A stretch of 64,000 bases of DNA from Psilocybe cubensis (Eukaryota). Position numbers and translations under genes: made by a program. The DNA is taken from positions 868,001 to 932,000 of the forward strand of contig CM039006.1 of assembly GCA_017499595.2 (NCBI GenBank). The letters are read 5' to 3'. Shown here piece after piece: positions 22,115 through 44,067 of the stretch (positions are counted from its first letter, which is position 1; each line of letters begins with the position of its first letter). A model generated the notes under the pieces. That model saw nothing but the letters and a program-made list of their open reading frames with translations. It had not been told where the DNA came from and did no database searches.

Positions 22115-22432
22115 CACATAAGACAGTTTATTTATAACGTACATTACCTAAGATTTAATAATAAGGATATTACGTGAGACACAGTGGATTTACTTCCGCT
22201 ACCTAATTAGGAGATTAGCGTGATGTACGTGTGATTTAGCCTGGCAAATCATAGCGTACATGACGTGCCATTTAGCGCTAAATGGAGCCGCCGGGTGGCC
22301 TGCGGGATCCGCGCGTCTACCTACACGGAAGAAACACGGGCCGGAAATGAGCCGGACGGGTCCATTTGCATCCCGTGTATTGCAAGCAGACGGATCCGCT
22401 TGACCCGTGTTGTGCTGTCAGACAGACCCATT
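22115..22432. repeat. Left terminal inverted repeat of the KDZ element
   Basis: Reverse complement of 43750-44067 with only a few mismatches. Contains internal ACACGGG/CCCGTGT and CGGATCCG motifs. Confidence 0.95.
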
Positions 22433-22557
22433 CATCCATCCGCTTCTGTATTCCGACAAATATCCGCCTTGAATCGTACATTGGATGACCGTTAATATAT
22501 GTAATAAGGTGTATAGATTATACTGGCAGCAAATTCCTTTCCATATACCCTGATAGT

Positions 22558-23837
22558 ATGGATTATGCCTTTGAGCTAACCCAATCCCTCTCAAACTACA
22601 TGAAGGCAAAGATAGCTAGTCGTCTTTGGCATGCAGAACTGCCTAATCAAATCCGGGAAAACTTCAGTGCTGAGACCATGTTTGAGTGCAATCTAGCTGT
22701 GGAGGTGATTTTGCAGGCATTTGAAAATCAAGGTATGCAATCAATAAGCTTTGAAAATTGAGATTAAATAATGTGTGAATGGCAGAATATACGACGTGGG
22801 ATGCAGAAGAATATTTGACCCATCTCAGCGCACGTTGCACGGGTCAGAATTCTGCCGTTGAGGCTCGCCTGAAAGACCAGTTTCCTCCGGTGCATTCCAC
22901 GTTACAGTACCAAACCCTGCCCGGAACTGTAATCGATAGTGCAGGCAACATATTGGTGTGGTACCTGCCAGGTATTTTGTCAGAGACAAGGGTGGTGAGT
23001 TTTAGAAACGGACCGATTAATTCCTATATTATGCGTTCTAAAGAGTAACAGGAGAGTGTGTGGAATTCATTACGGGATATTGAAACAATGATTCACAAGG
23101 CGGCACCTTTGGCCACAAGCTGGAGGGTCAATGACAGTTACTTTCGACATGAGCCAGGTTGGCTTCAACCTGGAAATCTTAACTTTTCCCCGGCATGGTT
23201 TCAGCAAGGCCATGAGGTGAGAAACTTGTTTGCTAAGTATTATACTGCCTCATATTTTCCTCAGACGTCCAACCCGCTTGAGGTCTCCTTGGACTTGTGT
23301 AATCCTATTGGACAGGAGTTTATACGAGACATGATGACATCTTCGGCTTTGCTGGGAGCCATCTTGAGCATTATACACCCCGAGCAGTACCGGGCGGGAA
23401 TAAAATTTCTTCAACGGCTTGCTGCGGAACCGGAGCTCGTCCATAAGGCCGAAATATTGAAGCAAATTCTCACAATATGGAGTTCGCCCTTTGGAGTCAT
23501 GACCGCCATCAGCAACCGAGATACACCATACCATCGGGATAATGGGTCATGCTACTCATGGTACGATTTTTTGATGCCACTTGGGAAGGGTGAACACGGA
23601 CGGCTTGAGCTTCCTGGCCTTGGACTTCGGTACAAGTATGATCCCATGACCCTTGTTGCAATTACCGGCAGGTTGCTTCAACACGGCACGGTGTGCGAGG
23701 GAGATAGGGCAGTCATAGTCTATTACATGCGTAGGAATGTATTTAAAGAGCTGGGAGTCCAAGAGGCGGGATGGTCTACTACGTACGATCTTTTTGCAAA
23801 TTTACCGGCCACCAACACTTTTGATTTTGAAATATGA
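22558..23837 (+). CDS. TET/JBP-family 2-oxoglutarate/Fe(II) dioxygenase (fungal TET)
   Basis: Exons 22558-22732, 22786-22994, 23052-23216 and 23265-23837, with no internal stop. Motifs ILVWYLPGIL, GNLNFSPAWFQQGH, NRDTPYHRD (HxD), RLELPGLG..YDPMTLVAITGRLLQHG (distal His) and GDRAVIVYYMR (2OG-binding Arg). Location inside a KDZ element is the known context for agaric TET/JBP genes. Confidence 0.88.
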
Positions 23838-24064
23838 TCAGTTTTTGACTTGGAAGTTGGGTTTGGGGAAGATTTTTTTATATTTCCAAAACAAAACGGT
23901 ACGAAAGCTACAGGACAACCAGAATTCTCTGTCCCAGGGTGTTTCCGACGCGCCCGCGCTGAGCTCTTCCAAGGTTACCGGAATCATCGGACTCCGCCGT
24001 CGTATTACCGGCGGAAAAGGCATCATCCGCCTCCTCTTCGATGTCCTGTGCAAGAGGTGGGCAA

Positions 24065-25681
24065 CTAAGATTCCTCATCCCAGGGTGTTTCCGACACGTC
24101 CTCGCTAAGCTCTTCCGAGTTACCGGAAGCATCTGACTCCTCCGTCGTATCACCGGCGGAAGACTCCTCATCCGCCTCCTCTTCAAAGTCCTGTGCGAGA
24201 TGCTCTAAAAACGTAGCTGGTGTAGAGGATTCAGTGGTATCGGACGTACTATCAATATCATCCTCTTCTCCCGGGAAAACAGGTCTTGACCTTGCGTTAA
24301 AAAGGAAGGCATTGCTGGTGTGTGCATTTGACGGAGGGCTGACGGAACCGGGCGTAGGCAGAGTATCTGTTGGGAGATGAATATTTGCAGTGTTGGAGGG
24401 TGGCGAATGATACCAGAGTGGATGAAAAGGTAGTTCCTTGACGGCAATAAAAGAATAAAAAATGTCGTTGATGTAAAATGAAGCGACTTTGAGCTTTGAG
24501 ACCTCGAAGGACCGGGCTTGAGCCGTTATAGCGCCCCAACTGTCAGGAGAAGGGTGAACGGGATGCTGAAATTTGTATTTGGCTGAAAGCCCCTTGCCGT
24601 TAGAGAACGGGAGCTCCTTAGAGTCAATCCACATCTTCTCCAATACAGAATATCTGCCCAAGGCGGCCGAAGAAGTAGTCACTGCTTTATGGGCATTCTT
24701 CATTTTGTCCGCCACATTCCGGCGCAGGTGAGCCAACTCCCTCATTACGCCCGTTAGGATAGGCTGACCGCAGCGGGGACAGTAGGGCGGTCTGTGGTCA
24801 GAAATTGCAATTGGGGATGTTTCATCCCGCGTGTTTGCAACACGGGTCGGCGGATTGGGTTTCCCCGTGGGCGGTGAAAACGCGGAGCCGTGCTTTCCCG
24901 TCAACGCGGATCCGTGCTTCCCCGAGGTGGGGACGGATGTCCGTTCAGCCGCCTTTCCCTTGCCCTTGGGATTGTTTTCCTGATTTCTTGGAGGCCCAGA
25001 GGTAGATGAACTTGCGCCCTCCTTAGCTTCTTTCCTCTGATTATTTAGCCGGAGTACCTCTTGTTGGTATTCAGGCAGAACCACCTGGTGGGAAGGACGC
25101 AAATCAGATATAATCCACAGCAATAAAAAAACATACCTTGTTCCAAAATTCTCTTGCTTGCGATTCAACGGTAACAAAGGCAACTTGCCACTCATCGCCT
25201 TCAGCAAATCCGTCCCTCCACCAATATCCCCAGCTCTTGGTCTGATTTAAAATTTCATCATCTTCCCATGCTGACCAGCTTTGATTTAGAGATTCAAATA
25301 AAACAGCTCGATGGTGGGGAGTTCGGTTCAAAATGGCATGTACGCTCTGATTCTGATATAAAAAATGGAATATCAACTTGGAATCCATTGACATAGCAGT
25401 ATCCGAGTACTCTCAGCAGTATAGCCTGACGACCAGTTCTCAATACAAGATATAATCGTTCAAAATTACTGTCTTACCACCTCCAGGTCGAGCAAATACA
25501 TCCATTTTTGGCGACGCACGGAGGAAACAGAGTCTCCGTTTGCAATGAACAAACGGTATCCGGCACGGATCCGTGCACCACAAATATGGACATGAACTTT
25601 GGCCAGAGCACGTCGCTCATCATAGGTAAGGAGATGATGTTCGTCCTCGACAGGAGGTTTAAAAAGCCGCGGTAAGTGCAT
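24065..25681 (-). CDS. KDZ cargo gene, hypothetical protein with an acidic C-terminal tail
   Basis: Spliced ORF pieces 25466-25750, 25104-25394 and 24065-25207. Contains CPRCGQP and a D/E-rich tail. The start codon is approximate. Confidence 0.6.
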
Positions 25682-27631
25682 GAATTCAACGAGATGGGAT
25701 ACAACAAGAATGTTCAAAGAACTGGTTAATCTGTAATTATAAATCTCCACACGGACGGATACTCCGGGTTAATTTGACGGAAGACCTTATCCGCGGCCCG
25801 CCCCAGATCATTCCACATGGCAATCTGCTTTTGAGCATTTGCCCTGTGACCAACTAACCTGTCAGGAACAAAATCATGCCGTGCACGCCATGTCTTTGCC
25901 ATATACACATAAAATCTGACAGTCCATTCCATTTCCTTTTTTGTCAAGGCCAGCTCTTCTTGCCATCTATTCCTCTGAGCTCGCGCGCGGAGCCAGTTTA
26001 GCCTGAAGACTAAGAAGCCCTTGAGAAAAAAATTAGAAATACAAATAGCAGTACTCACACTCATTAACGTATAATTGATTATCATTGTCCAGGCCCTGAC
26101 GGGATCTCCAAATCCAACTTAGACGGTCCGAGCTTCCTCCGCGAATGTTCGGATCCGACACGGCATTACTATGCTTGCAATCATGGACTTGCAGAATGGG
26201 ATATTGTTTCCGAATATTATCCTTGTCTCGCACGCCAGCAGATAAATAGATCATCTTCTGACGGTTTGTGTTGTAGAGTCGCCGGTGCAATTTCCAGGAA
26301 GCATTCAAAAGCTTGACGCCATCCCAAGCACGAGTCCCCATATAGACGGAGTCGGCGGTCCGAACCTGATATTTATACTGCCAAGAAAGCTGGATCAAGG
26401 CTGACCGGACCGCTTCCAGACAGTCTTCTGCGTGGCCATGTCTTATTTGAAGTTCAAGTTTGCGAAGCCCTTTTAAAATGAGGTTTGTTCCCGCGTCAAG
26501 GCCGTCAAAGAAATCTTGTTTGACGGCGGAGGGAAACGGAAGCGGCTGTCGTTCCGGATCCGCGCGGGTAATGTTGACATTTCCAAGATCAGGATCGTCG
26601 TTGTCACTGACTTCATAGTCAAGTATGGGAGCGATGTCCCCTTGAATATCCTCCAAGACATCTTCGCCCATGAAGGTCATAGCGGATCGACAGAAGGCTT
26701 CAACGCGGGTCCGCATGGAGCAACGTTTATTGACCAAGTCAAGTTTCTGCGCGGTGGAAGGATGCTTTCCGAGCTTTCTGACATGGTCCCTGAGCTCCAA
26801 TCTAAAAGCATGTTAAATTCTGTAGGATGCAATTGAAATAATCGTACTGCGCTTGCTCCAGTTTTAAGCCGGATGATATCCATGCTGCCTTTCCAGTAGC
26901 ACCATTAGATGTAAGTTCCATATTTGAAAGATGCAATTCAATTTCTTGGCGTCCAGCAGCCGTTTTCACTTTGCTTGCCATTACCTTGCCAACAGCGTCG
27001 GCCACACCTTGTTCTCGGTCCGCTTCTGCTTTTGAAATTTCATCTTCCCAAGTGTTGATGAGCCCGGAATCTTGTTGATCCGTGATACCCCTATAAAATC
27101 GGTCTGTGATTCCGGACTGTTCCCGTGCCCGTTTGAACTTTGCAGCAATTGTTGCAGCCATATTAATGGTCTTCTTCCAGTTGGAATCCCCCATGTGGTC
27201 GTCCAAAACCTCTGCTCGATGGGCAGTGGTAGCGGAACGTGTACTCCGGGATGTGTCATTTAACACGGACCACAACGGCTCCAGGATTTCTCCGTCAATG
27301 ATTCCCACACCCGGGACATAGGTGGATGCGTAGTTGTAAAGACATTCCGTCTTGTGCCCGTGGACGTGAAATAAACCAATTGCAAAAATCATTTTAACAG
27401 AAGGTGGCCAATGCATTTTTGTGGACTCTGAGAGACGCCTTGCCAAGTTAACGCAATATTGACAGTTTATATCGTAGATTTCCAAATGTTTTGTGATTCC
27501 CTGTGTGTTGGTAGTTTCCCTGGCCTGAGTCAAAGACCAATCCATGTGCATCTGCTTTTCGCCTTTGTCAAAATCGACAACGCTGGATGGACAGAAGCAT
27601 CCGTGCCTAGCGCAAGCGTGTGCCCCAATTC

Positions 27632-28081
27632 TGTCAGGGTTTCTCCAGTTTCCCCTCTTTATCTTCACAGAATTATCTTATCCTTTCATTATCTTATCAA
27701 TTATCTGATTAGATAGTTTATTTCTTTCATCACAGCCTTTTTGCTCCACTTCTTTCTAGTAAATTCTATATGATTCCTAGTCTTACTCATCCTTTTTCTA
27801 TATGATGTCACTTTTATTCTTTAACCTTCCTTTATGATGTAATGTAGGGAATATTCTAGAATAGCTGTAGAGTATAAATACTGGACTTGTAGGTAGCTGT
27901 AGCTTCAGCTTCAATCTCTTAGGATATCCACTATCATTGGTGTGATCTCTTAGAATCATTGAGTCTCTCCCACTCTCTTATTCTCTCTTTGCTCTCTTAC
28001 TCTCCCTCTGCTCTCTCTCTCTCTCCCTTGCTTGATCTTTGTTGGTGGCCTTGTCACACTGATTATAGTGTTGCCCTGACA
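27632..28081 (+). repeat. 5' LTR
   Basis: Direct repeat of 33561-34010 with no difference seen by eye. TATAAATA at 27873. Confidence 0.97.
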
Positions 28082-28572
28082 GAAGATTGAAGCTCTCTCA
28101 AGACAACTCCACCATCTCTCTTTTAACACCAAACTCTTCAACCTCTTCAACCTCTTCAACATCATCACCTCAACCTTCTTCCCCCACTTCCAACCCACCA
28201 ACCTCTTCATCAACCTCTTCACCAATCTTCTTACCAACCTCTACATCTCCACCAATCTTCAACATCCTCCTCAAGACCTTTCCTCAAGACCTTTGGCTCA
28301 TCATCTTTCCTACTCTCTGTTGTGTGCTGTGTGTGAACTTAGTAGATAGGGATACCAACTGTTGGGGCAGACACAGTCCTACTAGTGTTCTGTTTTTGGT
28401 GGTCTAGGAAATATCCAGTAACCCTGTGATCCTAGGTTTAGAGCCCTGAGTGGTGTGACAACTGGGTATCCAGTAGATAGATATTTTTTAGAATACTTAG
28501 TATAGTTTCAAGGGCACTTTTAGTAGATAGCTTCTCCCACACACACATCAGAGAGCCTACCTACCCCTACCC

Positions 28573-29682
28573 ATGGACATGGACCCCTCCCAATTGCCTC
28601 CCACCACTCCTTCTGTGGAAGAGCTCATGCATCAGGTCCAGCTCCTTACCCAAGAGTTGAATTTTCTTAGACAGCAGCAGCAGTCATCACCCACTCCACC
28701 ACACCCTCAGCAACCAGTCAGTCAGTCACCATCATCACCACCACCACCACCACCTGCTGCTCTAGATATTCACTCTTTCCCTACCCCTCATGTTGCCCCT
28801 TCCTGTTCACACTCTGTCATTAAAGTCTCACCTCCAGATCCATTTGATGGTTCTATGGAGAAGGCAGAAAACTTCCTCAGTCAGCTCAAATTATATTTCT
28901 ATGGGAAAGGGATTACAGATGACTTTCAGAAAGTTATTTGTGCTCTATCTCATATGAAAGGAGGTACTGCTGGGAAGTGGGCATATGAGAAGACTAAAGT
29001 AATAGACAATGCTCAGTCCCAAGAAGGTCTTTGGGCTGACTTTGTTTATGAATTTAGGGAAGTGTTTGCAGATCCAGACCCCTCCAACACAGCTAAACAT
29101 AAAATGCACATGCTCAAGCAAGGCAGACAGACTGCTGATGAGTATGTTGCTAGCTTCAGGGCTCTGATCTCAGATACTGGGTATAATGATGCTGCTTTGG
29201 TAGACCAATTCAAGGCTGGGCTCAATGAAAATCTCAGGAATGCAGTCTACTATGTTCCTGACATGCCCAAAACCTTGGATGGATGGATTAAATGGAGTAC
29301 TAGGCTAGATAGGCAGTGGAGACAGAGTGAGGCCTTTACCAAGTCTCTTTCCTCCTCCTCATCTTCTCCCTTTCTTAAAGCCCCAACTCCCAAGGCTGTT
29401 CCTAAGCCTACTCCAAATCCTCCAGTCTTTTCCAACAGCAGCTCAAGGACCTTTGGTGCTCAGGCAAAGCAACCAGATGTAGTTCCCATGGAGGTTGACT
29501 CTGGATGGAAGTTAGTTAGGCCAATTGTTTGCTTCAAGTGCAGAAAGCCTGGTCATAAGGCTGTAAACTGCAGGTCATCAGTTAACATCAATGCTATGAC
29601 CCATGAAGAACTGGCTGACTACTTTGGGAAATTAATCTTAGAAGGCAAGGAGCAGAAAGATGAGGAAAAGAAAAATTTTTAG
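28573..29682 (+). CDS. gag: Gag (retrotransposon gag domain plus CCHC zinc knuckle)
   Basis: Motifs PDPFDG, LKQG..TADEY..F..L, FKAGL, PMEVD and CFKCRKPGHKAVNC. Confidence 0.95.
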   Translation: MDMDPSQLPPTTPSVEELMHQVQLLTQELNFLRQQQQSSPTPPHPQQPVSQSPSSPPPPPPAALDIHSFPTPHVAPSCSHSVIKVSPPDPFDGSMEKAENFLSQLKLYFYGKGITDDFQKVICALSHMKGGTAGKWAYEKTKVIDNAQSQEGLWADFVYEFREVFADPDPSNTAKHKMHMLKQGRQTADEYVASFRALISDTGYNDAALVDQFKAGLNENLRNAVYYVPDMPKTLDGWIKWSTRLDRQWRQSEAFTKSLSSSSSSPFLKAPTPKAVPKPTPNPPVFSNSSSRTFGAQAKQPDVVPMEVDSGWKLVRPIVCFKCRKPGHKAVNCRSSVNINAMTHEELADYFGKLILEGKEQKDEEKKNF

Positions 29683-32600
29683 AAGCACCATTGGTGAAAG
29701 ACATGTCCCAATGGAATAGATTTAATGTACTAGAAAATGAAATTGACAGACTTGATCCTCAGTCTTCAGATTCTGGTGCAGAAATCATGTCTTCTTCTTC
29801 CTCTCTTTCTACCTTCCCTGAAAAGATCTACATCCTCAACCATAATCCTAAAACCTCTACCCATTTGTCTGTCATCTTAAAGACAATGGACACAGAGAAA
29901 AGGTTATCTGTTAATGCTTTGCTTGATTCTGGAGCTACTGGCCTCTTTCTGCATTCTGGTTTTGTGAAGTATCATAATCTCAACACAAGGAAACTTCCTA
30001 GAGCCATTCCAGTCTATAATGTTGATGGTACTCTCAACAAGAGTGGCTCTATCCATGAGGAAGTAGACTTAATTATGGTACACAAGAACCATACAGAAAG
30101 GGCCACCTTTGCTGTTTGTGACTTGGGAGACAAATCTGCTATCATTGGACATACTTGGCTTTGGCACCATAATCCAGATGTTGATTGGAAGACAGGGGAT
30201 GTTCAGTTTATTAGATGTCCCTCTGACTGCCAAATGGAAGCCAAAAGAGCTAGAAGAAAGAGGCAGAGAATAGCTGCAGTCAAAAGGAGGAAACTCCCTC
30301 AATTTGATGAAGAAGAAGATGATTCTATTGAAGATTCTTCTGATTCTGAGATTGAGCCTGAGGACAGAATTTTCATCTCATACCTTCATCCTCAGAAGCA
30401 GTCTATTAATGCTACTTCTACTATGTCTCAAAGATTAGCAGAAGAGTCTCATCAGCAAGCTGATTCTCCTAAGAAAACCTTTGAAGAAACTGTCCCTAAG
30501 CACTATCACCAGTTTAAAGGTGTTTTTTCAAAGGAATCTTTTGATAGGCTACCAGACAGGAAGCCTTGGGATCATGCTATCGAGCTGAAACCTGGTTCTG
30601 AACCTTATAGATCCAAGATTTATCCTCTCTCTCCCAATGAACAAAAGGAACTTGATGCCTTTTTAGAGGAAAATCTGAAGTCTGGCAGGATTAGACCCTC
30701 CAAGTCACCTATGGCCTCTCCTGTATTCTTTGTCAAGAAGAAGGATGGATCTCTTAGGCTTGTCCAGGACTATAGGAAACTGAATGAAATGACCATCAAG
30801 AACTCCTACCCCCTTCCATTGATTTCTGACATTATCACCAAACTCAGCAAAGCCAAATACTTCACCAAACTTGATGTTAGGTGGGGATTTAACAATGTCA
30901 GAATCAAAAAGGGAGATGAATGGAAAGCAGCCTTTAGAACCAATAGAGGGCTGTTTGAACCATTGGTCATGTTCTTTGGTTTAACCAATAGTCCTGCTAC
31001 CTTCCAAACTATGATGAATGATATCTTTATTGAGCTCATTGATGGAAATGTTGTCATTGTCTACATGGATGACATTTTAATTTTCACTGAGACTCTTGAT
31101 CATCATAGAGAGGTAGTCAAGCAAGTTCTGCAAATCCTAGAACAGAACAAACTCTACCTTAAAGCAGAGAAATGTGAATTTGAAAAGGAAAAGATTGAAT
31201 ATCTTGGACTAATCATTTCACAAGGCAGGATTGAGATGGATCCTGTCAAGGTAGAGGGAGTTTCTAAATGGCCTGAACCTGAAAATGTCAAGGATGTCCA
31301 ATCATTCTTGGGATTTGTTAATTTTTATAGAAGGTTTATAGAGGATTTTGCAGACATTGCTAAGCCCCTTCATGAATTGACAAAGAAAGGAACAGTCTGG
31401 AGATGGAGTCTTAGACAGCAGGAAGCCTTTGACCAGTTAAAGAAGAAAGTCACTTCTTCACCTGTCTTGATTTTCCCTGATGATAACAAGCCATATAAAG
31501 TTGAAGCAGACAGTTCAGATTATGCTACTGGGGCTGTTTTATCTCAGGAAGGATCAGATGGAAAATGGCATCCTGTAGCCTTTATGTCTAAGAGTCTATC
31601 TGAAGTAGAAAGGAATTATGAGATCCATGACAAAGAGATGCTGGCTATTATCAGAGCACTAGATGAATGGAGACATTATCTTGAAGGAACCCAACATTCC
31701 TTTGAGATTTGGACAGACCACAAAAACTTAGAGTACTTTATGGTTGCCCAAAAGCTCAGCAGAAGGCAAGCCAGATGGTCACTCTTCCTGTCCAGATTTG
31801 ATTTTACTCTTCATCATAGGCCTGGTAAAAGATCTCTTAAGCCAGATGCTTTGTCTAGGAGACCAGATCATAAAAAGGGAGAGAATGATAATCAAAATGT
31901 AGTTCTCCTCAAACCTTCCTACTTTAAAATCCAGGCTCTCAAGCAGGGTCATGCTACCATTACTGGTGCAGAAAATGATCTTCTTAAGAAGATTAGAGAA
32001 GCTAAGGAGATGGATGAAAAGGTGGTCAAGGCAGTTCAGGAGCTCAAGAAATCTTCTACCAAGAAGATTGAAGGACAGGAATGGTCAGAAGAACAAGGCC
32101 TTATTCTCTACAGGGGGAAGGTGTATGTTCCCAAGGACAAAGATCTTAGAAGAAAGATTGTGGAACTGCACCATGATGCCTTCATTGCTGGACATCCAGG
32201 GAAATGGAAGACAATTGAGCTAGTCTCTAGGAATTATTGGTGGCCAGGAATGTCACATTTTATTGCAGCCTATACCAGAGGTTGTGATAGATGCAACAGA
32301 ACCAAAACCTTTCCAGCCAAACCTCTTGGCCTTTTAATTCCTACTGAGATTTCCTCTGATGTCTGGCAATGCATCTCTGTGGACTTTATTATGGGGTTAC
32401 CAGAATGTCAAGGGTATAATGCCATTATGGTGGTTGTGGATAGACTTAGTAAAATGATCCACATTATCCCTACTACAGATGAAGTCACTTCTGAAGGGAC
32501 AGCCAGACTATACAGAGATTATGTCTGGAAACACCATGGCTTACCCATTAAAATTCTGTGTGATAGAGGTCCACAGTTTGTCTCAAGGTTTATGAAAGAA

Positions 32601-33560: not shown

Positions 33561-34010
33561 TGTCAGGGTTTCTCCAGTTTCCCCTCTTTATCTTCACAGA
33601 ATTATCTTATCCTTTCATTATCTTATCAATTATCTGATTAGATAGTTTATTTCTTTCATCACAGCCTTTTTGCTCCACTTCTTTCTAGTAAATTCTATAT
33701 GATTCCTAGTCTTACTCATCCTTTTTCTATATGATGTCACTTTTATTCTTTAACCTTCCTTTATGATGTAATGTAGGGAATATTCTAGAATAGCTGTAGA
33801 GTATAAATACTGGACTTGTAGGTAGCTGTAGCTTCAGCTTCAATCTCTTAGGATATCCACTATCATTGGTGTGATCTCTTAGAATCATTGAGTCTCTCCC
33901 ACTCTCTTATTCTCTCTTTGCTCTCTTACTCTCCCTCTGCTCTCTCTCTCTCTCCCTTGCTTGATCTTTGTTGGTGGCCTTGTCACACTGATTATAGTGT
34001 TGCCCTGACA
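33561..34010 (+). repeat. 3' LTR
   Basis: Direct repeat of 27632-28081. Confidence 0.97.
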
Positions 34011-34098
34011 AATTCCACATACTCTCTTACCCGGGCTGACTCTGTTTTCAGCTTTCTGGGCGTGGTAGTTATGACATGTTTGTTCCTGATATTTTTTT

Positions 34099-34200
34099 AC
34101 ACGGAGGATAAGCCATCCGCCGTGGAAGATTTTTTTGACACGGAAGGGAAGCATCCGCCGTGGAAGATTGTGACACGGAACGTAAGCATCCGCCGTGAAA
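34099..34200. repeat. Three ~35-bp tandem units inside an intron of the KDZ transposase
   Basis: Unit ACACGGA-n-CATCCGCCGTG(GAAGATT) repeated three times between the coding blocks APRYKR and EQTCHNY. Confidence 0.8.
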
Positions 34201-36911
34201 GATAAATCATGGTAGATAACGCACCCGTTTATAACGTGGAGCAAGAGAAATTGCTTCCTTGATGTGCTCCTTGTATGGGCCCGGAGCAGTCATGTATCCT
34301 TCTCCAACGCTCAACCAAACATCGTCTCCCTCGTTTTTCTGATTGAGGTGATCTGCTTTGAAATTACCATCTGCAACATAACTACGTATGTACAGATTGC
34401 TATTTGCTGTTAATTGCAGTCACCCTTGAAGAATAACTAAAACTTGCCTGTCAGCATCATCAATCCAGGTATCAGGTAGGTTTATTCCAGGCTGTGGACA
34501 GGCGGGGCAGAATAAGGCCAACTTCCCTCTCCTATCTTCAACTTTGGGATGATCCTCGGTCCGCGTCATTTGTGGTGCAGGCGGACCATCTAATCCACCG
34601 TGTCCCAGAGACGGGTCCGTTGACATTCCGACTTCTTGAGACGGACTATCAGATCCGCCGTCAATTGGATCAGATACATTAATACCCATCCTCTCTGGTG
34701 ATGAATCATGGCAATGATGATAGTAAGGGACCACCGCTTCTCTTGTATGCCCTTCTCCGTATTGTCGTCTCAGGACAAGGTCCCTGTATTCTCTACTAAG
34801 CCTTCTCAATTCACGATAGCGGTTCAGCACCTTTTTTGGAAACGCTGGCGAAGTCAGTCTTCGCAACTTTTGGTAATACTGATAAGCCGACGTTTTGCAC
34901 TCGAGGTTGTCCATCCGAAAGTCCTCAAGGACCTCAACTGTGAACACAGTTTGAACGTTTTCAAAGCTGGCTGCAAATAATCCCATCTCCAGATACTGTA
35001 AATCAATAGACGGAAGGCGGACGGACCGGCATGTGCATGTTCGCACGGGCAGATAATGGACTCCGGAGGTGTGCACAATTGCCTTGAAAGGAATTCCATT
35101 GTTGTCTGCTGCCTTTGGACGAGGTTGGTCCAGATAGGTTGTATCGACTTCCTCGAATAGATCATCGTCTTCATCGTCTCCATCGTCCAGCTCAACCAAA
35201 TGGGGTACCTCCGGGTCCGCCAGAAGCTGAGCCGTAAAGGATTCTTGGTCATTGCTCGCAGGAAGCGGATCCAGGTCCAATCCGTGTTCATCCTCAAAGA
35301 TGGGCGAATTGTTTCCGCCGTGCCCATGACTCCCGGATGAATTGTTTCCGCCGTCGCATCCTAGATGGCTCGGATCCGTGGGATAAGGACACCGCTTCCC
35401 ATTATGACCCAAATACAACTTGACACCCACTTCCCACAGAGCTCCCGGACGGAAATATAGACCCGTCCACTTCTCAACGCGGTGGAAAGGTGTAAATTGA
35501 TGGTTTCTTCGCAGGCATTCAGAACACAAAATTCTAGAGCCAAAGCATTGGCAACATCTCCACACTCCAGACATTCCTTGACATTGCTGACACCGTCCAT
35601 TCAGATCCGGATCCGGGGCTTCTCCTCCAATCATTGTTCCAAGATACACCTCTCGTTTCGGGAGCCATTCCCTCAGGTAATCATTTTGAGACTGGATAGG
35701 TAAAGTCATCCTGATCATTCTACTGAAAACATGTTAAAACATACCTTTCCTCCCGTTCTGTCGTCATCTAGCTGTCTCAGGTTATCAAGTACCTGCTGAT
35801 CAGTTAGATCTCCCGGATAATGAGGTATTTCTTCTTCCAGAATGTTGTGTTCATGGTTTTGGAAAGAGTAAGTCGTTGTTTGAGGGAGGTTTGTTGATGA
35901 TGATTCTGCAGGAAGTTTGTGGATCCTCGGCCGCCCTCTCTTTCGTTTCTTGGCCCCACTAGACCAGGAGGCCTCCCGAACATTGGGAAACTCCTCATCC
36001 GATCCCCTATCAGGTACTTTCTTGAAGCCCATGGATGTTGGAAACAAAGAGTCTGACAGCCTGTGAGCGCAGATCTAAATGTAGTATAACATGTTTATTT
36101 CTGTAGATAAATTTCCCTCAATTATGCCGTTTTAAAGAGGAGAAAAATAGCTTTCATATGACTTATCTTGCAGCATATTTGGATGAGTGAGTGAAATGTT
36201 ATGAACAAAACTTAATCCAGAGATGCACAAAATGGACGTGATCCCATCATAAATGTACAATATGATGCAGAACGATCCTTTCAGAACCACACTTTGGAGT
36301 GTTTTTGAAATATCTTTTCACTGGCTGGCCCCTCATTCCTCCGGCGTATATCATATGAAAGATATTTTTAATAGCTACCGAATGACATTTTTTGTAGAAT
36401 GTGAATCCTCGTATTTAAGGAGATATTCTCAATATACTAGAAAATGTGTCAAAATGAGCTCACTGGGATCATTATATTTTTTGAAAAAAATTATGCATTT
36501 GAATACCTCTCATGGTCTCTGAGATGACTGCCGTTTTGGGTTTCACAAGTTTTGGGTGAGAAGACGTGAATTTGAATTTTGTGTTTCTGTATCTTTACAG
36601 CCATCTAACAAGAATTTAAAACCTTGTAAAATTATCTTTATATAAAGCGCTAAATGTTTACAAAATTTCATGTTTATTGATTGAGTGCAGAGGGAACTAT
36701 TGCAAAATCATGAGGTCAATGTATGTGACAGCGACCAGCATGCTTTGATCATCGTGGCCGACGATGAAGCGGGATTACCTGATTGGGAAAAATATGACAT
36801 CACATCATTCATTTAGTATGATCGGAAGCTTATTTTATCTCCGTATGACGTGAGATTTGACTAGATCACACAGATACTCATCGATAAGCTACTTGTTACA
36901 TCGCTGCAATT

Positions 36912-39160
36912 ATGCCCACCAATGCATCCCCCGACGCGGATCCGCTTCCTTCCACCGCAAATGCCACAACCCACAACGGACCCAGAAGCGGACAGACGGC
37001 GGAGGGTGACTTTCCGCCGGAAGAATCAAATATATGGACCACAAAGGAAATGCGCGTGTTGAAAAAGCATGTACAGCCCTACAAAGATACATCAAAGTCA
37101 TCCAAAGCAGACTACATACAGAACACTGTCATACCTGAGCTGCAAGCTACATGGGATCACAGATACTCTAGACGTGCTAGGAAGGAAGATAAGCAACTAC
37201 ACAAAGAATGGAAGGTGAAGAAGCATGTGAGCTCGTTGTTTCTTTGAAAATTTTGTTACACACATAAACCATCACAATAGCGAATTTTTAATTGGTTTAG
37301 AAACCATGCGTCAAATCGAATTGGTGTAAAATTGGAAGGATTGAACTCCCGTATAACCTTTCAGACGGTATTCCGTGAGGAGAAGTCGGCAGAGATTGAC
37401 TCCGAGGTTGCGCTTCTATCAGGGAATGCTGCTCGTGGAAGTAAAGATTGGATGAAGTTTTATCAACAAGGACGTAAGCAGGTTGAGGCCAGATTGACTC
37501 AGGAGGAGCGGGACAGGTTCATGGAGATCCTTGAGGAATGGAATAAGAAAGGTGTTTCAAAATCAATGAAGGCAAAGTGAGTCGGTGGAACTTGTTTCCG
37601 CCGTCAATCTGACATCTGCAGGACTGCTGCCAGGCAAGGCAGAAAAATACTTCGACAAATGGAGAAACTTAAGTGGCAGAGAATGGGTATGAGGTCCATT
37701 ACCTTTGAGGGGCATTATGATATTGAGGGTAAAATCGAATACTCAATGTAAGTGTTAAACACGGCATGAACAAGTTCCGCCGTGAATGCTTACGGCAGAA
37801 TAATTTGGCCCGTATTAATGTTGACTGATGGGCATTGAAGGACCCAGACAAGCGATCTAGCACTCGACAATGTCAGAATTCCTTCCTTTGGGCAACTCTT
37901 TCCATCCGAGTTGGCCGCTTTTCGCAGAGCGTTTGTTCAATACCTCGTCCACATTTCAGAAATAGAGAAGGGTGTGGCCAATCCAGCACTGCCAGATGCA
38001 TCGTTTCATGAAAAATCCCTCAAGTTTAGCAGCAATGGATTTCCAATAGTACCTAGTCCTATCTATGGCTCAACTGGGAGAGAAGTTGCTTATGCGCAAA
38101 AGTCAATTATTAGAATTTACATGAACAAGGTTTATGGTGTGTAATTTGTCTATGTCCTCAACAAACTTGCTAACTATGTATACAGCTTTAGCCAAGGATA
38201 GGCCTGGTTCAAGTGTTCCTTGGGATGCTCTTGAAAGGCGTTCTGCAGAAATGATTGATCCAGAGTATTGGCCAAGTTCAATCCCTGTGACGGATCCGAG
38301 CCGGCTCCGCCTGGAGTCAACTTCTGCAATTCTCAAGCTATGGAGGGACCGTCAAGCGCAAGGAGACATCCCCTTTAAATTCTCAAAGGTTTTTGGAAAT
38401 GGCTATGACATTATGGAACCTCTCTATCCGTCCAACTTGTTTGACGGCCTAGAAGCCCACCCGATACCTCCACCTCCTGCAGCCATAACCAAACGTCGGC
38501 TGAGGCAAAAAGCTATACGACTTCAAACCCAATCTTCAAGCGACTCTGAATCATCCAATCTGTCAGAGTTTGATAATGGACGGGGCAGTCCGGCATCCGC
38601 GATGCCACGCACTACTGCCAGATTTGAAGTCACGCCAGAGACGGATGAGACTCCTACCGACGCACCTTCAAGATCTAGCGAGCCACCCTCTCTACCAAGT
38701 AGATCCAGCCCAACAATTGTCAATCCATCATCCAGCCCAACTCCAGAGGTTGAGGAGGCGCCTCCCAAGCCAGCTAGAAAGATTATGCCAAGAAAAAGAA
38801 CAAAGCCATATGTCGGAACGGCGGAAATGGGACGGACCCGATGAAGAGAGTTCTGTACCCCCCCCAGTTAAGCCAAAACCAACTAGAAGGATTAAACCTA
38901 GGAAAAGAACAAAGCCCTACTCAGATCCACTTGACACAGTGGAAGAAGATGGAGTCCAAACAGGAACAACCCACGACACGGATAATACACGGGCTGGCAG
39001 GGACGTGACTTGTGATGCCTTTGTGGAGACAGTAACAAGTCCAGATACGGATGAAACACGGGCCCGCAGGAATGTGACTTCGGATGCCTTAGCACTTCAG
39101 GAAGCAAGTCTGCTTGTTGTAGCAGGTAAAAGACAAAGAAAAAAAACTTTGAAAGCCTAG
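36912..39160 (+). CDS. KDZ cargo gene, multi-exon hypothetical protein (helical N-terminus, P/S/K-rich tail)
   Basis: Spliced ORFs at 36912, 37332, 37911, 38134 and 38570. Motifs IWTTKEMRVL, RIFNWFRNH and VPWDAL..IDPEYWP..DPSRL..ILKLWRDRQ. Divergent from the transposase; the 3' end is uncertain. Confidence 0.65.
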
Positions 39161-39438
39161 CTGTTGAAGTAGATTCATGATACCTATTGAATGTGATGCT
39201 TTTTATTCTTATCTTGATGTTTCTCAAACATGTTTTCACACAAAATCAAAACAGAAAGCGGGGTTCATTAAAAATCATCAAGTGCTACTTTTTGGGAGAG
39301 GTATAAAACAGATGAGCACATGAGAGTAAAAACTATATACAGTCCAAATGATGAAAAAATTGTATAGGGATGTGAGCAATGTAATATATGACAGGCAAAA
39401 AAGGAGACCAAAAAAAAGTTACAAAGAATTGAAATACA

Positions 39439-42007
39439 CTACTTTTTTTGGGCCTTGGATTTTTTGGGCGAGCGCGATGCTTCAGCCAGAGTCGTTTCCG
39501 CCTTTCGCTTTCGTCCAGCCCTTGTCTTTGTGGCTATGTTCGACGCGGGCAGCGTGGACGCCACGATCTCAACATCCTCCTCCTCCACAATTTCAACCTC
39601 GTCGCTGTCCGAGGGATCAGACAACTCCGATGAGTGTCCATTCCCGGATGGCCCAGCCTTGGAGGATGGCTTAGCCTTTGACAATGGCTTAGCCTTTGAG
39701 GATGGGCCGGCCTTTGACGATGGCGCGGCCTTTGACGATGGTGCACCCTTTGACAACGGTGCGGCCTTTGACGTCGAACTTCGAGGACGTGGAGCTGGGA
39801 GAGGGGGTGGTGGAGACAGGGAAAGGATGGGCGGTACCGGTGGGAGCGAGGGTCGGCCAGCTGGGGGGGGCAAAGGCGCTTCCGGAGTCGAACCGGGCAA
39901 GAATAGCGCTGTTGGTGGCGCAGACACGGCAGGGAGGACGGGTGCGGGTGGAGGTGGGGGAGGGGAAGGGAGGACAGGTGCTGGCGGTGGTGGAGGAGGG
40001 GAAGGGAGAATGGGTGCTGCTGGAGGTGGAGGTGGGGAAGGGAGGGGTGCTGGCGGTGGTGGTGCGCTTGGGGATTGTGGCACAGAGGTGGGTTCACGGG
40101 TCCGCGACGGACCCGATTCTTGTTCGACCTCCGTCTTGGAGGGTCCTGCTGCCTGTTTGGGGGCGGGATTCCTTTGTTCATCCTGCTCCAGCAAATCGTC
40201 GACCACATCTCGGACGTGGTTGATCCTCTTGGTGATGTCGTTGAACATCGTGACAGAAAGCGAGGTGCTTCCTGCCACTTGTTCTTTGGCCATGGTCCAT
40301 TCGGCCTTCACCTCTTGGATGCCGTCCTCGATGCTCTTCATCCTGTTCTCCACCGCCAAGTTCGTCTCGGCAAACGTCGCAATCCGTGCATTAATCGCCG
40401 TCATGGACGCGGATAACCCGTCCAGCCGTTCCATGATTCTGCCTTGGCGCTCAAAGAGCTGCACAAGCAGTTCTCCCACATCCTCGGGGAACGACCCTTC
40501 CCCGGCCTTCCCCTTCGCCGGAACATCTTCTCCCTCCTCCAACTTCAACGCCTCCCCATAGCTTCCCAGTGGCGTCGTCAAAAATTGACCCGCGAAGGTG
40601 TTGCGCCCCGGGTAGAAGCTGCAGTGGATCTTGCGAGACTTGCAAGACTCGCAAGATTGGTGCTTCACGGGGACGAGAGGCTCAGTGCCTGTCTCCCCCT
40701 TGACATAGCATGGCACCTTGAATTTGATGCATGCCGTGCACCTTTCCACCATGTCCACCATCCCCTCTGGCACCTGGCGCACTTTCTGGGATCTCGACCG
40801 CGCCTTCCTGATGGGGGGGACATCGTCCTCGGTGTCCTTCTTTACGGAACGCGTGCGCATCTTCCGGGTGGGGGTGGCAGTGGGGGTGGTAGGCGGTGCC
40901 CCTTTGTTATCGCCTTCGTCGTCCTCGTCGACGTCCGCGTCCGCGTCTTCGTCCGTGTGGCTTCCTATGATCGCCTTGCTCCTGAATTTCCCCTGCTTGG
41001 ACTTCGCCAATCTTTCCAGCTTCTCCCTGTACGCTGGGTGACCGGGCATGTTGGAGGCGGTAATGTGGGGAATGATTTCCCCCTTCTTTGTCCGTGGGCC
41101 CCTGTAATCCGCTGGAGCCAACTGAATGGACTCCACGGGGTCCGCCGCTTTCCGTTTGCCCTTGTCTTTGTGGGCGTCTGTCACGGGTCCGTCTTCCACC
41201 GGGGGTTCGACTGCCTTGCCCTTGCCCTTCTCGGCCCGTCTCTTCTCCGTCTCCTCCTTGTTCCTCTCCTCGTCTGTCTCCTGCTCCTGCTCCTGCTCCT
41301 GCTCCCTCTTCCTCCTCTCCTCCGCCTTCTGCCTCTCCTGCTCCCTGGTCCTCCTCTCCTGCTCCCTCTTCCTCCTCTCATCCTTTCTCCTCTCCTCCAC
41401 CTTCTGCTTCTCTTCCTCCCTCTTCCTCCTCTCCTCCTCCTTCTGCCTCTCTTCCTCCTCCTCCCTCTGCCTCTCCTCTTCCTCCTCCCTCTTCTTCTTC
41501 TCCTCCCTCTTCCTCCTCACCTCCCTCTTCCTCCTCTCCTCCACCCTCTGCCTCTCCTCCTCCTCTTGCTCCTCCTTCTCCCTCCTCTTCTCTTGCTCCT
41601 CCTCCTCCCTCCTCTTCCTCTGTGCCTCCTGGCCTTCCTGGTAGGCCTTGAAGTTGGCGACTTGATGTTTGAGCATCGCCCAGTCGACCTCAAACCTGTA
41701 GATGTTCTCGCCGTCCTTGCCCTGGATGACTTTGTACGAGTAGACAACGGGGCTCGCAACATAGTCAATGAGCCGGAAGCGGGCGGCGTCCCTGACATGC
41801 TCCTGACACAATGGAACCTATTGGAATTTTTTTTTTTGTTGAGCAAGTCATGATCTTATAAAATTGAGAACTTACCAAGTCCCTGTAAAGCTGCTCCAAC
41901 TCAGCGTTGAACGCGCTTTCACCGTTGCGGTAGCACTCGGTAAACTTTTTTTCCCAGTCAGCGAGGCGTTGGGCGAAGGTGGCGGTGGTGGAAGATGAAG
42001 CGGCCAT
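39439..42007 (-). CDS. KDZ cargo gene: Zn2Cys6-like cluster protein with an E/R/K coiled coil, a second coiled coil and a Pro-rich tail
   Basis: Exon 1 from 42007 (MAASSST..YRDL|GTAAGT) spliced to ORF 39439-41811. CTACIKFKVPC-x18-CESCKSRKIHC gives C-x2-C-x6-C-xn-C-x2-C-x6-C. Basic NLS-like C-terminus. Confidence 0.75.
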
Positions 42008-42238
42008 TGAAAAAAGCGTGTTTTTATGGGGGAAGACACGTTAAATGGGTGAGGCACGGTAGAACGTGAGGGTGGTGATCGTGGTTGGAGTTAGTCTAAA
42101 AAAAGTCTAAAAAAAAGCGGTCCCGCAAAACAAAACCATACACAAACATGTACAATCTGAGTCATGTGATTTCTTCACCAGATCCAGTTTGTGCAAAAGT
42201 TGCTAAGTTCGATACACGGGTGAATCTATTTCCGTGTC

Positions 42239-43670
42239 ATGGAGAATCCTCGGATAGTATTGTATTCTGTGAGATATATAAACAAGCCCACCCAGTTGCA
42301 CTTTCTGGACTGTATGTCCTCCTACAACTTTATTCCCACCTCTAGCAAAAATTCCCCCATTGACTACACCAGTCTCAACAATCTTACCAGGCTTCTTGAA
42401 AAACTGAAGGAACCTCCTCCCGTAAAACCTATAAAATGTAAGACTAATGGCATTAATTCAAGTAAATTTTAATTGATTTCTGAGCATCAGCAATGTCTTC
42501 AAATATTAGCAACTCTAAGGAAAGCAAACGCACAGCAAGGACGGATGACCTGGCTCCGCCGCCAATGCCAGTCATTCCAGATAACCTGGCTCCACCCCCT
42601 ATGCCTGTTATTCCAGATAACCTGGCTCCTCCCCCTATGCCAGTCATTTCATCTAACCTGGCTCCGCCCCCTATGCCAGTCATCCGGAAAGACCTGGCTC
42701 CGCCGCCAATGCCAGTAATTCCAGCTAACCTGGCTCCACCCCCTATGCCTGTCATTCCAGCTAACCTGGCTCCGCCGCCAATGCCAGTAATTCCAGCTAA
42801 CCTGGCTCCACCCCCTATGCCTGTCATTCCAGCTAACCTGGCTCCACCCCCTATGCCAGTCATTCCAGCTAACCTGGCTCCACCCCCTATGCCAGTCATC
42901 CGGAACGACACGGCTCCGCCGCCAATGCCTGTCATCCGGAACGACACGGCTCCGCCGCCAATGCCTGTCATCCGGAACGACACGGCTCCGCCGCCAATGC
43001 CAATCATTCCAGATAACCTAGCTCCTCCCCCTATGCCTGTCATTCCACCTACCCTGGCTCCTCCCCCTATGCCTGTTATTCCAGATACCCTGGATCCTCC
43101 ACCTATGCCTGTCATCCGGGATGATGTGGCTCCGCCGTTGATGGCAGCACATGTTTCATACACGTCTGTCGTCGACAAAATCATTATGGACTCTCGTCCA
43201 GCTATTTCCTCTGAGAGGAAGCAAGGTCGCTATTCTCCACCCCCTGAAGCATGCCACCTGCTCCTTCAAAACCCTTATTTTTGAACCTACGGCAGGTTTG
43301 ATCCCATGGGCGGCTACCCCGGTTCGCCTCCCACCCAGTCTGACATTGAGTTCGAGGATGTGACAGATCAGACGGCATATTTTAACCCTCCTTTTCTATA
43401 TGTATGCACTCAGATATTACCAAGCACTAGATACTGACAACTATTTTAGAATTATACCGAGCAGCAGCTACGGGCAACATACGACCAAATAATCGACAGT
43501 TCCGTTGGCGACAATAGTTATGACAGCAAGGTCACAACGTTTAAGAACCTCCGCCTGCATCAGCTGCAGTCAGAAATTCTGACTTATAATGCGCTGGAGG
43601 AAATTGACGCTGGGCTGGCAGGGATTGAATCGAGTTTGGAAAAGCATTTGTATACCGGTAGAGATGAATA
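42239..43670 (+). pseudogene. KDZ cargo gene with 16 x 12-aa Pro-rich repeats and a probable premature stop
   Basis: ORF 42239 splices into 42493-43284. The frame continues past TGA at 43282-43284 (TYGRFDPMGGYPGSPP..FNPPFLY|GTATGC) to a last exon ending GRDE* at 43670. Confidence 0.55.
42550..43125 (+). repeat. Coding minisatellite, 16 x 36 bp (LAPPPMPVIPAN-type)
   Basis: Tandem CTGGCTCCRCCSCCWATGCCWGTHATT.. units; variation is mostly synonymous in the first nine codons. Confidence 0.95.
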
Positions 43671-43749
43671 AATTATTTTTGGAGCCCTTGTGCTCATTGA
43701 TTCGCAATACCTCTCAAATATCCCTCCCTCTCTGGGAAGATACGGGTCA

Positions 43750-44067
43750 AATGGGTCCATCTGACAGCACAACACGGGTCAAGCGGATCCGTCTGCTTGC
43801 AATACACGGGATGCAAATGGACCCGTCCGGCTCATTCCCGGCCCGTGTTTCTTCCGTGTAGGTAGACGCGCGGATCCCGCAGGCCACCCGGCGGCTCCAT
43901 TTAGCGCTAAATGGCACGTCATGTACGCTATGATTTGCCAGGCTAAATCACACGTACATCACGCTAATCTCCTAATTAGGTAGCGGAAGTAAATCCACCG
44001 TGTCTCACGTAATATCCTTATTATTAAATCTTAGGTAATGTACGTTATAAATAAACTGTCTTATGTG
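43750..44067. repeat. Right terminal inverted repeat of the KDZ element
   Basis: Reverse complement of 22115-22432. Confidence 0.95.

Follow-up and report, generated by a model that had tools for sequence, protein, structure and literature searches.

Sequence-specific anti-silencing by a DNA transposon has been demonstrated experimentally, at the level of both binding and hypomethylation, for VANDAL21 and its protein VANC21 in Arabidopsis; VANC21 localised in non-coding regions and its targets were often tandem repeats (Hosaka et al. 2017, PMC5735166). A second point of comparison is the fungal zinc-cluster proteins. Their CGG pairs may be inverted, direct or everted, each factor having its own spacing, and the Zn2Cys6 domain that reads them is followed by a linker and a coiled coil; the sites given in a passage of PMC10954478 are those of Gal4 (CGG-N11-CCG), Hap1 (CGG-N6-CGG), Leu3 (CCG-N4-CGG) and Pdr3 (CCGCGG). 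Third, the TET-positive Kyakuja transposons of Agaricomycetes include Kyakuja-1_LB and Kyakuja-2_LB, which were described without terminal inverted repeats (TIRs), and AG-type TETs have been suggested to act without target specificity (Kojima 2025, PMC12730594). Here we analysed a 64,000-nt stretch of Psilocybe cubensis (CM039006.1, 868,001-932,000; called the window) that holds a KDZ transposon at 22115-44067. We found that a palindromic 8-mer, CGGATCCG, is a real, element-specific, DNA-level signal in the window. The explanation that we favour, tentatively and at somewhat less than an even chance, is that selection may have kept the palindrome and its variants as binding sites of a Zn2Cys6-like reader encoded by the element, for a self-recognition that would keep the element's own copies open.

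The element resembles the Kyakuja transposons in its gene content and its ends. It encodes a KDZ transposase with a CxC2 region and a TET/JBP dioxygenase, and its CA..TG termini (CACAT..ATGTG) and 7-bp target-site duplication (TSD), GAGTTTT on both sides, agree with the description of that group in Kojima 2025 (PMC12730594). It differs from Kyakuja-1/2_LB in having TIRs of 318 nt that are 99% complementary, and the absence of TIRs may be a trait of those two elements rather than a defining one.

Two further systems bear on the comparison. The maize Spm/En protein TnpA has 12-bp subterminal motifs that are clustered at the element ends, and the mammalian CXXC domains associated with TET read any unmethylated CpG. 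Both share with the explanation proposed here a reader, encoded by the element or linked to an enzyme, that recognises short motifs with CpG and is tied to loss of methylation. Unlike the targets of CXXC domains, the motif here is a family-specific 8-mer. Unlike the sites of TnpA, its copies are dispersed: they are not concentrated in the terminal few hundred bases, as subterminal repeats of the CACTA/Spm type would be, for each TIR has one copy and 15 sites are internal.

A dispersed palindrome in the KDZ element

The initial annotation had reported ten copies of CGGATCCG in the element (22391, 24907, 25566, 26150, 26555, 35371, 35608, 36937, 38291 and 43784), a single copy outside it (61036) and none in a nested retroelement, together with seven internal copies of the variants CGGGTCCG and CGGACCCG (26706, 34612, 35212, 38833, 40097, 40108 and 41184) and one outside (51326). 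All of these positions proved exact. We took as the element the interval 22115-44067 minus the retroelement (15,569 nt), and as comparison DNA the flanks (42,047 nt) and the retroelement (6,379 nt) at their final boundaries. CGGATCCG occurs 10 times in the element, once in the flanks and never in the retroelement (Fisher P 1.7e-05), and the more general CGG-N2-CCG occurs 27, 9 and 0 times, respectively (Fisher P 2.8e-09). When the window was shuffled 100 times with dinucleotides preserved, CGGATCCG appeared 0.54 times on average and at most 4 times, and no shuffle reached the 11 copies present; the eight copies of CGGGTCCG/CGGACCCG compare with a shuffle mean of 0.76 and were likewise reached in 0 of 100 shuffles.

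Markov models of orders 0-3 trained on the element expected 0.21-0.51 copies of CGGATCCG, which is the top-ranked 8-mer of the element outside tandem arrays; orders 5 and 6 expected 3.6 and 8.8 copies, having been trained largely on the sub-words of the motif itself. The sequence context is unique at every site except the mirrored TIR pair, and internal duplication is therefore not the cause of the excess. CpG contexts are skewed in the element relative to the flanks (TCCG 2.2-fold, TCG 0.6-fold). The CpG of the element is not depleted (observed/expected 0.80), so the survival of protected CpGs cannot yield a 20-fold excess. The 17 CGGRYCCG sites are spaced no more regularly than random sites (coefficient of variation 0.82 vs 0.92). 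As in the VANC system, the element has a short family-specific motif that is rare elsewhere, and its enrichment survived control of composition, CpG and codon usage in the Markov, flank and synonymous-shuffle comparisons within the window.

Mismatch counts indicated which bases of the motif matter. Single mismatches in the triplets were at background level, with observed/expected values of 3/2.8 at positions 1/8, 2/1.7 at positions 2/7 and 0/1.0 at positions 3/6, while mismatches in either of the two centre bases were observed 11 times against 1.2 expected. Since the triplets are constrained and the centre is tolerant, the unit is CGG-N2-CCG, in which AT or GT is preferred at the centre; this bears out the frame that had been proposed as the constrained part. 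In a scan of half-site arrangements, CGGA and TCCG joined without spacer stood out.

The features of the element and the positions of the sites within them are as follows.

22108-22114, no strand: left TSD GAGTTTT (right copy at 44068-44074), read directly.
22115-22432, no strand: left TIR with CGGATCCG at 22391; 318 nt, 99% complementary to 43750-44067.
23049-23837, plus strand: main exon of the TET/JBP dioxygenase; Pfam Tet_JBP, E 1.5e-19.
24068-27631, minus strand: 3' part of the KDZ transposase gene, from tblastn of the 1691-aa protein P0003 and Pfam KDZ; exons 27629-26841, 26803-26060, 25735-25517, 25352-25128 and 25090-24068; CGGATCCG at 24907, 25566, 26150 and 26555, CGGGTCCG at 26706.
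27632-34010, plus strand: nested Ty3/Gypsy chromovirus, with a pair of long terminal repeats (LTRs), TSD AATTC, and gag and pol frames.
34011-36032, minus strand: 5' part of the KDZ transposase gene, in which the CxC2 cysteine cluster lies; exons 36032-35745, 35694-34225 and 34088-34011; CGGATCCG at 35371 and 35608, CGGGTCCG at 34612 and 35212.
36888-38844, plus strand: conserved accessory gene with no assigned family; CGGATCCG at 36937 and 38291, CGGACCCG at 38833.
39439-42007, minus strand: gene of the six-cysteine (Zn2Cys6-like) protein; CGGGTCCG/CGGACCCG at 40097, 40108 and 41184.
42476-43195, no strand: 36-nt tandem array of about 16-20 copies, adjoining the right TIR only and open on both strands.
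43750-44067, no strand: right TIR with CGGATCCG at 43784; 318 nt.

Of the 17 CGGRYCCG sites, the transposase coding sequence contains nine, the accessory gene and the gene of the cysteine protein three each, and the TIRs two. We compared the coding sites with synonymous shuffles, in which codons are permuted among positions of the same amino acid and both protein and codon usage stay fixed. The transposase coding sequence holds 6 copies of CGGATCCG vs 0.44 expected, with a maximum of 3, and none of 2000 shuffles reached 6; for CGGRYCCG, 9 sites were observed vs 0.80 expected. Six of the eight non-TIR palindromes are read as xCG-GAT-CCG (x-Asp-Pro). In the transposase, NCG-GAY-CCG encodes six of the seven [S/T/P/A]-Asp-Pro tripeptides, and proline is written CCG in 7 of 9 Asp-Pro dipeptides vs 31% CCG usage overall. 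Of the six Asp-Pro site positions, distant homologues conserve three, and the other three are in variable loops; hence the motif sits where the protein tolerates it.

Some other repeats were seen in the element. TCCGCCGT/ACGGCGGA occurs in 13 copies vs 1.5 expected, including a 35-nt x3 repeat in a transposase intron (34091-34203), and may be a second motif family. The units of the 36-nt array have GGCTCCGCC in their consensus and CGGCTCCG in three units. A 145-nt unit is repeated 1.8 times with 86% matches at 23913-24200, just past the 3' end of the transposase coding sequence towards the TET gene.

Paired CGG triplets in other KDZ loci

We next compared the element with 80 KDZ loci (563 kb) from metagenome contigs, which were drawn by a profile of 30 KDZ transposases. 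CGGATCCG is not a general KDZ motif, with 22 copies in the 563 kb. Seven of these are inside one tandem array (locus L076, 16235-17235, about 6 kb downstream of the KDZ gene), whose 80-nt unit contains CGGATCCG flanked by GGCCAACCTGTATGGCACGG repeats; these seven copies were set aside. Other loci have dispersed words of their own. L015 carries 29 copies of CGGCGCCG vs 2.6 expected and L004 carries 25 copies of TGCCGCGG, and CpG-containing dispersed words were also found in L017 (CCGAGTCGG), L024 (CCGACCCGG and CCGACTCGG), L032 (CGGGCCCG) and further loci. In the word scan, 8 of 39 loci passed log10P -8, while the best value in the controls (four 10-kb flank pieces and the chromovirus) was -6.1.

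For a cross-validated test, motif discovery was confined to DNA beyond the KDZ gene span, and each motif was then counted within the coding blocks and compared with synonymous shuffles (500 shuffles); near-duplicates (L022, L026, L027, L035, L063, L074, L075 and L077) were removed. The test was passed by 7 of the 24 non-redundant loci. No shuffle reached the observed number of coding sites in L015 (7 vs 0.13 expected), L004 (9 vs 0.54), L017 (4 vs 0.37) or L036 (5 vs 0.62), and few did so in L076 (3/500), L062 (16/500) and L024 (17/500). The remaining 17 loci had 0-1 coding sites, as the shuffles predict. The motif of a family had a density of 5-34 per 10 kb in its own loci; the density fell to 0.1-0.9 across 411 kb of other KDZ loci and to 0-0.7 in the window flanks. 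Between L017 and L024, which are 67% identical, 6 of 15 aligned sites are kept vs 10.6% expected (P 0.003), and each locus has 10 further sites in unalignable DNA, a pattern that reads as conservation plus turnover.

A paired-triplet scan covered 32 canonical triplets in 27 arrangements (3 orientations, spacing 0-8), counted only clusters more than 60 nt apart, and left out the same eight near-duplicates as well as L009, L013, L042, L044, L052 and L067. CGG/CCG came first among the triplets in the window element, in 16 of 34 loci, and in 9 of the 12 loci with log10P <= -6. Four flank controls gave log10P values of -2.4 to -3.0, with CGG at ranks 25, 19, 4 and 11. The inverted N2 geometry of the window recurs in L015 and, weakly, in L040, its nearest relative. 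Other inverted CGG pairs have spacing N0 (L008 and L048) or N5 (L053), everted pairs have N0 (L004), N1 (L003), N3 (L017 and L024) or N4 (L071), and L036 has a direct pair with N3. A tree of the KDZ core (15 rows) placed the TGCCGG loci in one clade and resolved little else. In one KDZ clade (L071, L074, L055, L016 and L029), CCGG is about 5-fold over composition across whole contigs (179 in 11.3 kb of L071), and TGCCGG occurs 69 times.

The initial annotation had named as strong support different motifs tracking different Zn2Cys6 variants across related KDZ families. Most of this was found, namely different paired-CGG motifs and a conserved cysteine gene that travels with KDZ elements. In this small set of loci, motif geometry could not be linked to whether a cysteine domain is present, to its loop length or to its sequence.

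The six-cysteine protein and its neighbours

The candidate reader is encoded by an open reading frame (ORF) of 792 aa at 39439-41817, and a first exon with a start near 42007 is inferred from the protein P0123. A K/E/R-rich N-terminal part is followed by the segment CTACIKFKVPC-x18-CESCKSRKIHC, then by what is predicted to be a long helix, and finally by a tail rich in Pro. The segment has two exact C-x2-C-x6-C triads with an 18-residue loop and does not match the canonical Zn2Cys6 expression (C-x2-C-x6-C-x5-12-C-x2-C-x6-8-C), which allows a loop of x5-12; the canonical spacing does fit relatives in 10 of 17 two-triad loci (8 distinct families). An exhaustive phmmer search of 1.84 billion representatives returned only five relatives, a word-based homologue search returned three, all named from Psilocybe cubensis, and a protein atlas gave nothing above 0.79 for the cysteine region.

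A six-frame search for two C-x2-C-x6-C triads 4-20 residues apart found 17 cases in the 563 kb of loci (13 families) and one in the element, and none in the reversed loci, the window flanks or the chromovirus. The ORFs from the loci have a common architecture of a charged low-complexity N-terminal part, six cysteines and a Pro/Ala-rich tail. The gene shares the strand of the transposase and lies upstream of it in 11 families, an arrangement also seen in the window. Across 16 aligned sequences, no cysteine of the second triad varies and those of the first hardly do; the loop has 7-19 residues, and the second triad reads AC..C...K..C. A profile of this alignment searched against all PDB sequences matched best to Leu3 (E 0.005, halves aligned in swapped order), followed by AlcR (E 0.036, aligned colinearly and itself having a loop of 16 residues), Lac9, Ppr1, Gal4 and Pho7, and zinc-cluster proteins made up 9 of the 10 best distinct PDB sequences. 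A structural model of the cysteine segment has a 60-residue helix after a disordered linker (predicted local distance difference test, pLDDT, 67-87 by block). The label Zn2Cys6-like given to this protein was confirmed only in part. The Pfam Zn_clus cut-off was not reached and the PDB E-values are marginal, and we therefore call the protein Zn2Cys6-like and not a member of the family.

For the transposase, a Pfam scan of the minus strand gave KDZ (E 1.4e-33, 26802-27677) and CxC2 (E 1.4e-21, 34420-35733). The CxC2 exon ORF at 34420-35733 is 98% identical to P0003, a CxC2+KDZ protein named from Psilocybe cubensis, and tblastn of P0003 followed the exons on the minus strand at 96-100% identity, except for one overlapping high-scoring segment pair at 50%. 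A second KDZ family of Psilocybe cubensis is represented by P0004, a transposase with 53% identity. The gene is interrupted between 27631 and 34011 by the 6.4-kb chromovirus, which splits the transposase, so the window copy is dead and not autonomous. The stretch is represented in 12 sequencing-run rows from 4 studies, and the uninterrupted junction is present in contigs of runs X1, X10 and X12; the insertion is thus absent from other copies or strains. Unlike the window copy, the element family is still alive. Contigs of X1, X10, X11 and X12 over 33861-39438 are near-identical copies, and there were 0 motif-internal variants among 40 of the 92 variant places in that interval, a divergence too low to inform on constraint. 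RNA data were not listed among the sequencing runs containing the stretch.

The TET gene reported in the initial annotation was confirmed by the Pfam match, and neither KDZ nor TET genes were found in the window outside the element. The accessory gene at 36888-38844 is multi-exon and divergent from the transposase. It has tblastn relatives in 19 KDZ loci (15 after collapse of near-duplicates), mostly in the same upstream opposite-strand position, and it matched no Pfam family and nothing above 0.87 in the protein atlas. One base at 38829 of the window, just upstream of CGGACCCG at 38833, is missing in the X1 and X10 contigs, and the window copy of this gene may carry a frameshift there. In the right flank, a host ORF at 48180-49676 (plus strand) has a helix-loop-helix DNA-binding domain (Pfam HLH, E 6.9e-09).

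The nested chromovirus (27632-34010, TSD AATTC) has LTRs of 452 nt that are identical at 450 of 452 positions and open gag and pol frames, and is young. It contains 1 CpG in 6379 nt (at 30581; CpG observed/expected 0.00, TG 1.22, CA 1.14) and no copies of the motif. The chromovirus with its single CpG and the KDZ element around it, which keeps its CpGs, look as if they cope with CG methylation in opposite manners within a single locus.

Proposed self-recognition and its alternatives

Under the explanation that we favour, CGGATCCG and the CGGRYCCG variants would be kept through the element body as selected protein-binding sites, in both TIRs and in three of the four genes, where codon choice would have created them. 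The recognised unit would be two inverted CGG triplets two bases apart, and the best candidate for its reader is the six-cysteine protein that the element itself encodes (39439-42007, minus strand), which would bind as a dimer. Other KDZ families would work alike, with their CGG pairs oriented and spaced in ways of their own. Fungal CG methylation acts on CpG, of which every CGGRYCCG site has two, and a TET gene is on board, which is why we propose that the recognition of self is sequence-specific. In an anti-silencing step, a methyltransferase might be blocked or TET guided, and the element's own copies kept open. This step is suggested by the two CpGs per site, the TET gene, the retention of CpG compared with the chromovirus, and the likeness to VANC. 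The sequences themselves show the enrichment, the selection at DNA level, the constraint on the triplets, the geometry particular to each family and the conservation of the cysteine gene, whereas the identity of the binder, its dimeric state and all of the anti-silencing are inferred.

In its working, such a system would be closest to VANDAL-VANC. Both concern a DNA transposon with short family-specific motifs, which its own DNA-binding protein is proposed to recognise, and in both related families would have different targets and lose methylation on self copies only (PMC5735166). Unlike VANC, the candidate reader is zinc-cluster-like, with no detected relation to VANC, and TET is on board. 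In grammar, the closest match would be the host zinc-cluster regulons, with which the element and its KDZ relatives share CGG pairs in several orientations with family-specific spacing, constrained triplets with a tolerant spacer, a six-cysteine C-x2-C-x6-C-loop-C-x2-C-x6-C segment followed by a long predicted helix, and the best PDB profile matches of that segment. Unlike zinc-cluster factors, the domain is below the Pfam cut-off, is encoded by a transposon, has the basic AC..C...K..C triad second and not first, and has a loop of 7-19 residues (18 in the window); the sites are inside genes and not in promoters, and N2 is not among the spacings in the passage of PMC10954478. ORF-embedded sites, a divergent, long-loop, triad-swapped cysteine cluster carried by a transposon, TET and agaric hosts would set the system apart from both. 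The available text of Kojima 2025 (PMC12730594) mentions neither a dispersed motif nor a cysteine-cluster accessory gene, and the literature searched gave no description of either, although Iyer et al. 2014, MacPherson et al. 2006 or supplements may mention them.

Several observations weigh against this explanation. Some concern where the sites are. Unlike the VANC targets, those of the window occupy the TIRs and the bodies of genes, where the choice of codons writes them into ORFs. The TET gene region (22489-24067) has no CGGRYCCG site, and neither has 3.2 kb of intergenic DNA that includes the 855-bp divergent promoter region; by hand calculation, the chance that none of the 15 non-TIR sites falls in intergenic DNA is about 0.03. 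The lack of a site in the divergent promoter region argues against a simple activator. When the window scan was restricted to DNA outside the transposase gene, it found 4 sites vs 0.19 expected (log10P -4.3) and ranked the motif only among the top four, within the range of the controls. Several metagenomic contigs are motif-rich from end to end, and element specificity is proven in the window only.

Others concern the reader. Pfam Zn_clus scored 16 bits in the window, below the cut-off of 21 (E 0.014, profile positions 1-14 of 39), and among 10 ORFs from the loci it gave 4 sub-threshold matches (13-19 bits) and 6 without a match; the PDB E-values are all marginal, and the fold model of the cysteine segment is poor overall (pLDDT 59.5). 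A strong paired-CGG peak is present in 5 of the 13 non-redundant loci with a cysteine gene and there is none in 5 of the 13. Six loci lack the cysteine gene although their upstream DNA extends for at least 5 kb, and 2 of these 6 have a peak. L036 and L051 have similar second triads and different motif signals. The link between the cysteine gene and the motif rests on co-occurrence in the window and several loci, on synteny and on matching grammar, and is statistically absent in this small set.

The last points concern TET. It is on 23 of the 80 KDZ contigs and missing from those of the motif-rich loci L015, L004, L017, L024 and L036. The motif logic may therefore not need TET. Short contigs may account for some of the missing genes. 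TET may also act without target specificity, as read by Kojima 2025 (PMC12730594). Taken as a whole, the interpretation in the initial annotation is supported in part and has been sharpened: the motif is an element-specific DNA-level signal and other KDZ families have different paired-CGG motifs, whereas the cysteine domain is below the Pfam Zn_clus cut-off and the presence of its gene did not predict motif strength in this small set.

The alternative that survives best is that the KDZ transposase itself, by its CxC2 zinc module or another part, binds the sites for transposition, in end recognition, synapsis, cis-preference or immunity. We consider this unlikely. The transposase is the only gene common to all 80 loci, a site is located 277 nt inside each TIR, the CxC2 region is modelled as a compact zinc-binding module (pLDDT 78), and five loci with strong paired-CGG signals (L017, L024, L003, L008 and L048) have no cysteine gene on the contig. 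However, the DNA that precedes the KDZ gene on the contigs of L017, L024, L003 and L008 is less than 3 kb long and could not hold a cysteine gene, which lies about 3.8-6.7 kb upstream of the transposase in the 11 loci with both genes. The sites are spread over the element and its ORFs and are not stacked at the ends, and in L015, L004, L017 and L024 they are also spread roughly evenly. The CxC2 model had no Foldseek match in the PDB at E <= 0.001, and its best matches, ZZ, B-box and RING (E 0.6-1), are mostly protein-binding.

A host Zn2Cys6 transcription factor could also bind the sites, which the element would have accumulated for transcription under a host programme. Fungal zinc-cluster factors usually target CGG triplets in pairs and the CCGCGG of L004 equals a Pdr3-type everted site (PMC10954478), yet we regard this as quite improbable: the 42 kb of host flanks contain one CGGATCCG, the divergent promoter region contains no site, the motifs are family-specific across KDZ loci, and the elements carry a candidate reader of their own. 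In the metagenomic loci, host-specific factors might nevertheless take part. That the sites have no function and are a by-product of composition, codon usage, CpG-context mutation or internal duplication is disfavoured here and very improbable, because the skewed CpG contexts, the high-order Markov expectations and the three Asp-Pro sites at conserved peptide positions that speak for it are outweighed by low-order models expecting 0.2-0.5 copies (orders 5-6 being trained on the motif itself), synonymous shuffles expecting 0.44 vs 6, unique contexts outside the TIR pair, a CpG observed/expected of 0.80, independent families that show the same pattern with different motifs under cross-validation, and sites conserved above the neutral rate.

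Binding by the element's own six-cysteine protein, if it holds, can be extended to KDZ families in general. These might be self-addressed epigenetic units, each with its own AlcR-like long-loop reader, a CGG-pair address over the body of the element and, through codon choice, in its ORFs, TET demethylation or exclusion of CG methyltransferase at self copies, and co-diversification of reader and address; we hold this broader version to be rather doubtful. Mushroom transposons carrying TET are thought to counter methylation, and a family-specific address with a conserved zinc-cluster-like protein would supply the missing principle by which TET is targeted. This principle is directly testable with one 8-mer, one 40-residue domain and one enzyme. 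The transposase ORF appears to be shaped by selection on a DNA motif at synonymous and tolerant positions, a rarely documented constraint that recurs, with different motifs, in independent families. If the pairs of reader and address are real, nature would offer in them a collection of mutually orthogonal DNA-binding modules to which a demethylase could be coupled, and on the broader version agaric KDZ elements would have built a fungal counterpart of VANC from a zinc cluster and TET, a natural reprogrammable pair of reader and eraser.

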